A stretch of 64,000 nt of DNA from Escherichia phage vB_EcoM_CRJP21, in the sequence record OQ708376.1. One strand, given 5' to 3'. The position numbers and the translations under genes were made by a program. This document shows, one piece after another, positions 35,141 to 35,412 of the stretch; positions within the stretch are counted from its first letter, which is position 1, and each line of letters begins with the position of its first letter. The notes beneath the pieces are model-generated. The model worked only from the letters and a program-made list of their open reading frames with translations. It was not told the origin of the DNA and searched no databases.

Positions 35141-35412
35141 AATAAATGTAGACGGTCGTATTCAGTACTGAATCACTAGGGGAGGTTGTAATTCCCGAAT
35201 CAGTAGCTTAAAAGCAGACCCGTATGTGCCTACACATTACAACTAGTGCACATTTAAAACCTAGACGTAGGATGTAAGTATTCAGTTCTGAATAGCTGAA
35301 GGACTTATTATGGTACAATACAGTGAGAGGTACTTCGAGTATGCTCAGTTCACCTTTAGCTAAAATGGTCACTGTAGGATATTGTTGCAACAGTATCCAG
35401 TACTACTTTTTT
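35141..35412 (+). ncRNA. Candidate small structured RNA in the tRNA island (palindromic hairpins plus terminator-like 3' end)
   Basis: No plausible ORF; perfect palindrome ATTCAGTACTGAAT (35160..35173), near-copy ATTCAGTTCTGAAT (about 35280..35293), each preceded by TAGACG; 3' hairpin GGATATTGTTGC/GCAACAGTATCC then a T-run. By analogy to the small stable RNAs in the T4 tRNA region. Confidence 0.3.

Follow-up and report, generated by a model that had tools for sequence, protein, structure and literature searches.

The interval at 35141 to 35412 of the window (the whole 64,000-nt stretch of phage DNA that was analyzed) lies in a tRNA island, where the earlier note on this DNA had placed it; the island holds seven tRNA genes, all on the + strand. 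Asteriusvirus jumbo coliphages with genomes of 348 to 386 kb are matched by the interval and its surroundings (90 to 99.7% identity), the relatives matched including G17, Sharanji, phAPEC6, PBECO4, and 121Q (the G17/121Q/PBECO4 group). The nearest upstream sigma-70-like promoter, at 33941 (Table 1), is followed by tRNA-Ser, tRNA-Met, and tRNA-Asn and then by ORFs of 85, 133, and 71 amino acids (aa), and a terminator scan found no terminator-like site between this promoter and the interval. No conserved promoter was found directly upstream of the element. Directly 3' of the interval is the promoter of the next transcription unit, which is kept while the downstream gene differs, and the ATG of a 38-aa ORF (35441 to 35557) overlaps its −10 hexamer. 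PHROG matches of the flanking small ORFs, where there are any, are to families of unknown function, and a Pfam scan of their proteins gave no match.

BLAST located the element in 36 phage records, at one place per genome. Of the 33 Escherichia records matched by the surrounding 8 kb, 32 have the element, and it is also present in one metagenome contig. Pattern scans of the IMG/VR and JGI metagenomes, based on its two palindromes, returned one true relative (L021), the other matches being unrelated tandem repeats. In IMG/VR, no relatives of the element were found beyond 121Q and RaK2. Host mimicry was rejected: BLAST against 5,426 E. coli genomes and against plasmids found no match, and neither did a search of GTDB genomes.

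The interval is noncoding. It had been described as free of ORFs, and short ORFs of 31 aa (+ strand) and 60 aa (− strand) do exist, but both are broken by 1- to 2-nt indels in relatives. No reading frame is conserved and codon-position bias is absent, with divergences of 0.045, 0.023, and 0.034 by position; where records have ORF annotations here, the strand and extent vary. In some GenBank records, the annotated ORF, of 71 aa, begins within the RNA element and spans the terminator and promoter, and in others − strand ORFs are laid over the element (loci L036, L037, and L042 [343 to 551]). These are probably misannotations.

The interval is also under constraint. Among eight genomes, 22 of 263 sites vary in the element and 21 of 72 at the third positions of the adjacent ORF71 (first and second positions, 7 of 72 each), i.e., the element has 3.5-fold fewer variable sites than neighboring third codon positions. 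Compared with 121Q, the neighboring ORFs have diverged by 16 to 19% at third positions and the element by 3.4%; background identity between Asteriusvirus genomes is high. The flanks are mosaic, with the same block joined to at least four upstream and three downstream contexts and with borders near 35144 and inside the 35415-35442 promoter. The element therefore appears to be an autonomous module, kept in place while flanking genes are swapped.

A base-paired core common to two genera

A covariance model of the 5' half of the element (R2), built solely from Asteriusvirus sequences, matched Klebsiella phage K64-1 (L045, 16474 to 16587, + strand) with 42 bits and a rough E value of ~3e-6. The match sits in a 240-nt ORF-free gap of the K64-1 tRNA island, 1.3 kb upstream of the first tRNA and thus ahead of the tRNA cluster. 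RaK2, OU509535, and phiKp_21 (Alcyoneusvirus) also carry the element. It was not found by nhmmer, R1, or R2 in 20- to 40-kb pieces of Salmonella phage Munch and an IMG/VR relative.

In the inter-genus alignment, homology extends from 35146 to ~35308. Between genera, 17 base pairs in six helices are changed on both sides with pairing kept, a covariation that represents essentially one deep split, that of the two genera, plus one split inside Alcyoneusvirus. The alignment of unit A was a fit to the model, although invariant flanks (CCGU, UUAAAA, and the helix 3 strands) anchor the strands. Both sides have changed in 13 of its 30 pairs, with pairing in 99% of cells, compared with at most three such pairs in slid controls; none of 500 shuffles reached the observed value. 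Hairpins 7 and 8, in an independent MAFFT alignment, contribute four more compensatory pairs and are 100% paired. Because of this covariation between genera, we interpret the conserved core as a structured RNA of the + strand, whose fold is kept by selection in two genera through compensatory changes. The predicted core, of ~165 nt, begins with a junction, in which helix 2 closes helix 3/hairpin 4 and hairpin 5, and continues with hairpins 6, 7, and 8.

TABLE 1 Positions of the features of the element and its flanks in the window
Feature	Position	Strand	Evidence or remark
Nearest upstream sigma-70-like promoter	33941-33969	+	11/12 match with TG
Conserved core (predicted), helices 2 to 8	35146-35308	+	R2 match in K64-1, inter-genus alignment, 17 compensatory pairs
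Helix 2	35152-35155 with 35220-35223	+	Closes junction holding helix 3/hairpin 4 and hairpin 5
Unpaired UAUUCAG	35159-35165	+	Complementary to hairpin-8 loop CUGAAUA, 35288-35294
Palindrome 1, ATTCAGTACTGAAT	35160-35173	+	In both genera
Helix 3	UACUGAAUC 35166-35174 with GA(A/U)UCAGUA 35197-35205	+	In single-sequence MFE
Hairpin 4	35179-35183 with 35192-35196	+	3 pairs changed on both sides
Hairpin 5 (GCUU-AAA-AAGC)	35206-35215	+	1 compensatory, 1 wobble change
Hairpin 6	35224-35253	+	9 bp, one-base bulge
Hairpin 7 (CCUA-GACG-UAGG)	35260-35271	+	2 of 4 pairs compensatory; includes second TAGACG
Hairpin 8	35274-35308	+	Outer stem 35274-35279 with 35303-35308
Hairpin 8 inner stem	35281-35286 with 35295-35300	+	Loop 35287-35294
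Asteriusvirus-specific 3' domain	35319-35406	+	Within-genus compensatory pairs, local fold
Helix 9	35319-35325 with 35370-35376	+	3' domain
Hairpin 10	35327-35346	+	UNCG cap (UUCG/UCCG), compensatory pair within genus
Extended terminator stem	35366-35405	+	Local fold −12.4 kcal/mol
Hairpin 12	35377-35398	+	Compensatory pair within genus
U/T run, intrinsic-terminator-like site	35407-35412	+	Completes terminator stem
Sigma-70 promoter of next transcription unit	35415-35442	+	TTGACA-16-TATAAT, 12/12 consensus

Two of the four pairs of helix 2 are changed on both sides, and the fourth is lost in Alcyoneusvirus. Helix 3 is invariant and encloses hairpin 4, in which GGGGA/UUCCC has become UGAU/AUCA between genera. 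In hairpin 6, which is anchored by the conserved flanks CCGU and UUAAAA, both bases of seven of the nine pairs differ between genera. Compensatory changes in hairpin 8, which includes palindrome 2 (35280 to 35293), comprise A-U to U-A and U-A to C-G between genera; in JP4, a U-G pair has become U-A.

Twelve helices were common to two predictions, a fold from the window sequence alone and one from an alignment of 20 sequences, and the core helices appear in the single-sequence minimum free energy (MFE) structure, which was predicted without use of variation. Within Asteriusvirus, there is little variation. Hairpins 10 and 12 each have one compensatory pair; of eight single changes at Watson-Crick pairs, six produce G-U, a pair possible on the + strand only; and predicted pairs are disrupted by two substitutions, one in PBECO4/SD-6 (hairpin 12) and one in Turkey5 (helix 1). 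Within-genus evidence alone supports the RNA reading only moderately. Thermodynamic stability is unremarkable: the folding z-score of the interval ranges from −1.8 to −2.0 for the + strand and is −0.9 for the − strand, and the local background is −0.74 ± 1.29, so that the element does not stand out in a z-score scan, and values for the core and the K64-1 element are −1.4 and −0.55, respectively. In the single-sequence MFE of K64-1, a long-range duplex of palindromes 1 and 2 is favored over helices 3 and 8.

We consider it likely that the interval specifies a + strand structured noncoding RNA (ncRNA) of a previously undescribed family, common to Asteriusvirus (E. coli/Salmonella) and Alcyoneusvirus (Klebsiella). 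The most likely reading is a stand-alone RNA gene, with the transcript itself a prediction from the genomes, and we hold it with a similar, fairly good degree of confidence.

The 3' domain and the proposed transcription of the element

The earlier note had reported a long hairpin followed by a T-run at the end of the interval. Both are present, but the arms as first written overlap: the true stem is of 9 bp (35377 to 35385 with 35390 to 35398, including one G-U) with a 4-nt loop, and the run, T6, starts 8 nt after it. It is because of this distance between the 9-bp inner stem and the T-run that a simple terminator scanner missed the site. The local fold extends the stem to one base short of the T-run. 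The 3' domain is specific to Asteriusvirus: model R1 gave no match in K64-1, where a terminator at this place is also lacking. A possible internal extended −10 promoter, TGGTACAAT (35311 to 35319), would give an sRNA of ~85 nt in Asteriusvirus; this region is not conserved in Alcyoneusvirus.

In Asteriusvirus, the RNA would be made by read-through from the early sigma-70 unit starting at 33941, and the element may thus be cotranscribed with tRNAs. It would end at the genus-specific 3' domain with its intrinsic terminator (35366 to 35412), before the next early promoter, and host RNases would probably trim it at the AU-rich single-stranded flanks, leaving a stable RNA of ~170 to 265 nt. The situation upstream of the element is different in the Klebsiella phages: in K64-1 and RaK2, TATAAATA, the T4 late-promoter consensus, stands directly before it (K64-1, 16462 to 16475), and ATAAATA has been reported as a putative late motif for the Rak2-like phage CBB (PMC5259590). 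At that position Asteriusvirus genomes have AATAAATG at most, or nothing.

Alternatively, the structure could act in cis as part of an mRNA, either as a 3' untranslated region that stabilizes or insulates the upstream early operon or as a 5' leader that controls the next small ORF (Alcyoneusvirus gp260). The element's location, at a unit's 3' end and immediately ahead of a terminator-like site and a strong promoter, would suit such a role, as would the competition between helix 9 and the extended terminator stem for 35370 to 35376. In K64-1, moreover, the element is followed, without a terminator, by a 38-aa ORF whose AUG lies within CAGUACUAUG, a copy of the genome-wide motif treated below. 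However, the element is kept while the upstream and downstream genes differ among genomes, a nonconserved domain separates the conserved core from the terminator, and no riboswitch or leader family matches. On balance, a cis-acting role seems unlikely.

The palindromes and the AGTACT motif

A palindrome and a near-copy, each preceded by TAGACG, were the features that first drew attention to the interval. The palindrome (ATTCAGTACTGAAT) and the near-copy (ATTCAGTTCTGAAT at 35280 to 35293) are indeed present, and so are the TAGACG hexamers (35149 to 35154 and 35262 to 35267), but these stand off by gaps of 5 and 12 nt and are not conserved between Asteriusvirus and Alcyoneusvirus. A single perfect 14-bp palindrome is not unusual here, with nine in the 64-kb window and 7.3 in shuffles. 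The part beyond chance is the shared 16-mer GTATTCAGTNCTGAAT, which occurs twice, 120 nt apart; its number of pattern hits was not reached in any of 100 shuffles. Taken singly as RNA hairpins, the palindromes have little stability (−2.5 kcal/mol, z of −0.18).

Their conservation follows the RNA fold. An 18-nt module consisting of palindrome 1 and its flanks, GUAUUCAGUACUGAAUCA, is identical in both genera except for one base in EJP2; within the palindrome, EJP2 (ACTGAGT) is the one aligned sequence of either genus that departs from GTATTCAGTACTGAATCA. The 3' half of palindrome 1 forms helix 3 with the downstream strand, and the A-to-G change in EJP2 breaks the symmetry in DNA but keeps a G-U pair. 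The 5' half of palindrome 2 pairs with a downstream GCAGAA, an A-U pair having become U-A in Alcyoneusvirus, and because of this covariation palindrome 2 reads ATTCTGTACTGAAT in the Klebsiella phages and is not palindromic. The loop of hairpin 8, ACUGAAUA, is nearly invariant; at the palindrome center, which lies in this loop, AGTTCT is found in 6 of 20 aligned Asteriusvirus sequences, this window included. Helix pairing and lost symmetry together indicate that the palindromes are RNA helix strands and a loop rather than DNA operators or autonomous hairpins.

The unpaired UAUUCAG and the hairpin-8 loop CUGAAUA (Table 1) may form a pseudoknot or an alternative long-range helix. Both strands are invariant, which places this candidate outside the reach of covariation, and the pairing is seen in the 121Q centroid and in the K64-1 MFE. 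A need for several pairing partners would explain the near-invariance of the GUAUUCAGUACUGAAUCA module. Most likely, the self-complementary module either pairs in one of these ways with the hairpin-8 loop or serves as a recognition site for a protein or RNA partner.

The earlier note had suggested protein binding as its other explanation of the palindromes, and this was not borne out. The interval would then be a DNA regulatory region, with the palindromes as operators for a dimeric protein that recognizes TCAGTACTGA/AGTACT and controls the adjacent early promoter. Consistent with this, the 10-mer TCAGTACTGA lies in the spacers of the early promoters at 33872 and 33941, with related copies in the spacers of those at 33463 and 50438; AGTACT is ~9- to 13-fold overrepresented across the clade; palindrome 1 is nearly invariant in both genera; and a third partial copy of the repeat (GTATCCAGTACT at 35393) is found 10 bp upstream of the −35 hexamer of the 35415 promoter. 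However, dyad symmetry is not conserved in the DNA. Palindrome 2 has lost it in Alcyoneusvirus through a base change that is compensated in the downstream RNA strand, the AGTTCT of the six Asteriusvirus sequences destroys the AGTACT core, and EJP2 loses the symmetry of palindrome 1 and keeps only its pairing. Further, constraint spans the whole 165 nt and follows base pairing rather than islands of 15 to 20 bp, and AGTACT/CAGTACTG shows no exceptional clustering in the interval. An operator function is consequently improbable.

A further reading, which we regard as decidedly improbable, is that the RNA is a pseudoknotted or switching scaffold in which GUAUUCAGUACUGAAUCA pairs in trans with its own second copy or with the octamer CAGUACUG. 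This octamer is ~37-fold overrepresented throughout the genomes of the clade and therefore throughout + strand transcripts. If this were true, the element would act globally as a hub of RNA-RNA pairing, connected with the clade-wide AGTACT signature.

That signature is a property of the genomes as a whole. AGTACT occurs 157 times in the window, compared with ~17 expected (9.3-fold), and of the 64 palindromic hexamers it alone is an outlier; enrichment is 9.8- to 12.8-fold in Munch (L014), the IMG/VR jumbo relative (L016), and K64-1 and is absent from T4, PA5oct, and unrelated contigs. The motif is evenly spread, with occurrences in every one of the three reading frames as well as between genes, and tends to be preceded by C and followed by G, the palindrome core CAGTACTG being found 26 times versus 0.7 expected in the window. 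Several other palindromic hexamers are missing from the window (e.g., CAGCTG, 0 versus 5.7 expected; CCATGG, 0 versus 7.5 expected). No mention of the AGTACT signature was found in the literature searched. SlmA-binding sites (SBS), which need G, T, and a purine at positions 1 to 3 (PMC3020112), were considered as its cause and rejected, with no SBS match in the window. The genome-wide motif also lies between the −35 and −10 hexamers of a family of early sigma-70 promoters (33463 to 33490, 33872 to 33901, 33941 to 33969, and ~50438 to 50465) with the common spacer arrangement TTGAC(T/A)-AAATAGT-TCAGTACTG-TATAAT, where it supplies the TG of the extended −10.

Comparison with known RNAs and cassettes

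A scan with Rfam 15 covariance models, as suggested in the earlier note, gave no match in 35120 to 35440 at E values up to 10; in the whole window, tRNAs alone reach the gathering score. Among the phage RNAs closest in kind are those of PA5oct, a jumbo phage related to the Rak2-like clade, in which RNA-seq detected ORF-less, highly expressed ncRNAs of 236 to 619 nt and unknown function (PMC7318152). Of ncRNA001 to ncRNA004, two are abundant throughout infection, without database similarity (PMC7318152). The element is likewise ORF-less, but the evidence is of the opposite kind, with the PA5oct RNAs supported by expression rather than covariation and the element by covariation rather than expression. 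PA5oct locus L046, which contains ncRNA001 and ncRNA002, gave no R1, R2, or nhmmer match. The literature searched yielded no transcriptome of either Asteriusvirus or Alcyoneusvirus.

The ncRNAs of jumbo phages are almost unexplored, and expression is the sole basis of the few reported (PA5oct). For the present candidate, support comes from compensatory changes between two genera of phages that are used therapeutically, against E. coli and Klebsiella, and its defined helices, invariant modules, and borders make it open to direct deletion, probing, and pull-down. It would also correct annotations, as several GenBank records put hypothetical proteins on the element, and it is linked to the striking genome-wide AGTACT enrichment in the same clade.

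As a stand-alone ncRNA, the element can be likened to the small stable RNAs of phage tRNA regions and to 3'-end-derived small RNAs. Like the 3'-end-derived sRNAs of bacteria, which use the terminator of the operon upstream, it is located where a polycistronic unit ends, would finish in a stem-loop with a U-tail (in Asteriusvirus, an intrinsic terminator as the predicted 3' end), and has invariant single-stranded stretches. In contrast to typical seed-type sRNAs, it is much longer and more structured, and its terminator domain is not conserved between genera. A CsrA sponge was considered and dropped: the four GGA motifs are about the number expected by chance and lie mostly in stems.

The 3' border also resembles the promoter-early/stem-loop (PeSL) cassettes that mediate gene shuffling in T4-type phages (PMC2839356, PMC4122927). 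The hairpin at 35366 to 35405, the T-run, and the 35415-35442 promoter lie in a plastic region of small ORFs, so that a stem-loop terminator stands beside a strong sigma-70-like early promoter at a gene-replacement junction. PeSLs, however, are short and have many similar copies per genome, whereas no second copy of the element or of the hairpin was found in the 64-kb window. The covarying core upstream, of 165 nt, greatly exceeds a PeSL in length and is left unexplained by it.

The earlier note took its RNA idea from the small stable RNAs of T4. The idea itself is retained, as a candidate + strand structured ncRNA with six covarying helices, but its T4 premise is not: the phage is an Asteriusvirus, and the element has no sequence or structural similarity to T4 rnaC/rnaD. 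Homology to these RNAs (rnaD or species 2, 119 nt; rnaC or species 1, 139 nt) would be in keeping with their total length, which is comparable to the ~265 nt here, with the location in a phage tRNA region on the tRNA strand, and with the distant relationship of Rak2-like phages to the T4 group (PMC5259590). Like the element, rnaC and rnaD are ORF-free and have no Rfam family of their own, for which reason similarity was tested directly. Pairwise alignment with the T4 rnaD-rnaC locus gave scattered matches only, and nhmmer, R1, and R2 gave no significant match there. Further, rnaC has a tRNA-like T-arm, GGGTTCGAATCCCGG, and an acceptor-like stem and directly follows tRNA-Arg, whereas the element lacks a tRNA-like domain (no tRNA-model match at E values up to 10, and no tRNA found in the interval by ARAGORN). 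It is separated from the tRNAs by three ORFs in Asteriusvirus and lies upstream of the tRNA cluster in K64-1. We regard T4 homology as very improbable.

A nonfunctional spacer, i.e., a decayed tRNA or ORF beside a terminator, is barely credible, since the high background identity between these genomes and a weak likeness of 35145 to 35197 to tRNA-Gly (32148 to 32203; nhmmer E = 1.5) are outweighed by the deficit of variable sites, the retention in two genera with compensatory changes, and the lack of a tRNA-model match. Origin from a tRNA or pseudo-tRNA was rejected because the resemblance to tRNA-Gly is driven by the generic CAGTACT motif and by a G-rich hairpin that is not conserved in K64-1.

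Several observations concern other noncoding parts of these genomes. In Munch, ORF-free gaps at 17764 to 18027 and 22226 to 22379 contain unannotated T-arm-like sequences, GGTTCGATTCCAC and GGGTTCGATTCCTAC, which may be missed or atypical tRNA genes. A leader of ~70 nt upstream of tRNA-Thr (35663 to 35734, + strand) is conserved in all Asteriusvirus genomes checked and has a AGUAAGAU...AUCUUACU stem with an inner hairpin, which varies from genome to genome. A segment of the leader, CCUCCCCU, is complementary over 9 nt to AGGGGAGGU at 35178 to 35186 in the element; this is probably incidental, as these positions belong to hairpin 4, the sequence of which is replaced in K64-1. By far the strongest folding signal within 30 to 40 kb comes from an intergenic stretch at 37085 to 37320 (+ strand), with −62.6 kcal/mol compared with −36.7 kcal/mol in shuffles (z = −7.0). 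It contains four strong hairpins, two copies of TCAGTACTGA, a promoter-like sequence at 37250 to 37279, and a terminator-like site at 37281 to 37305.
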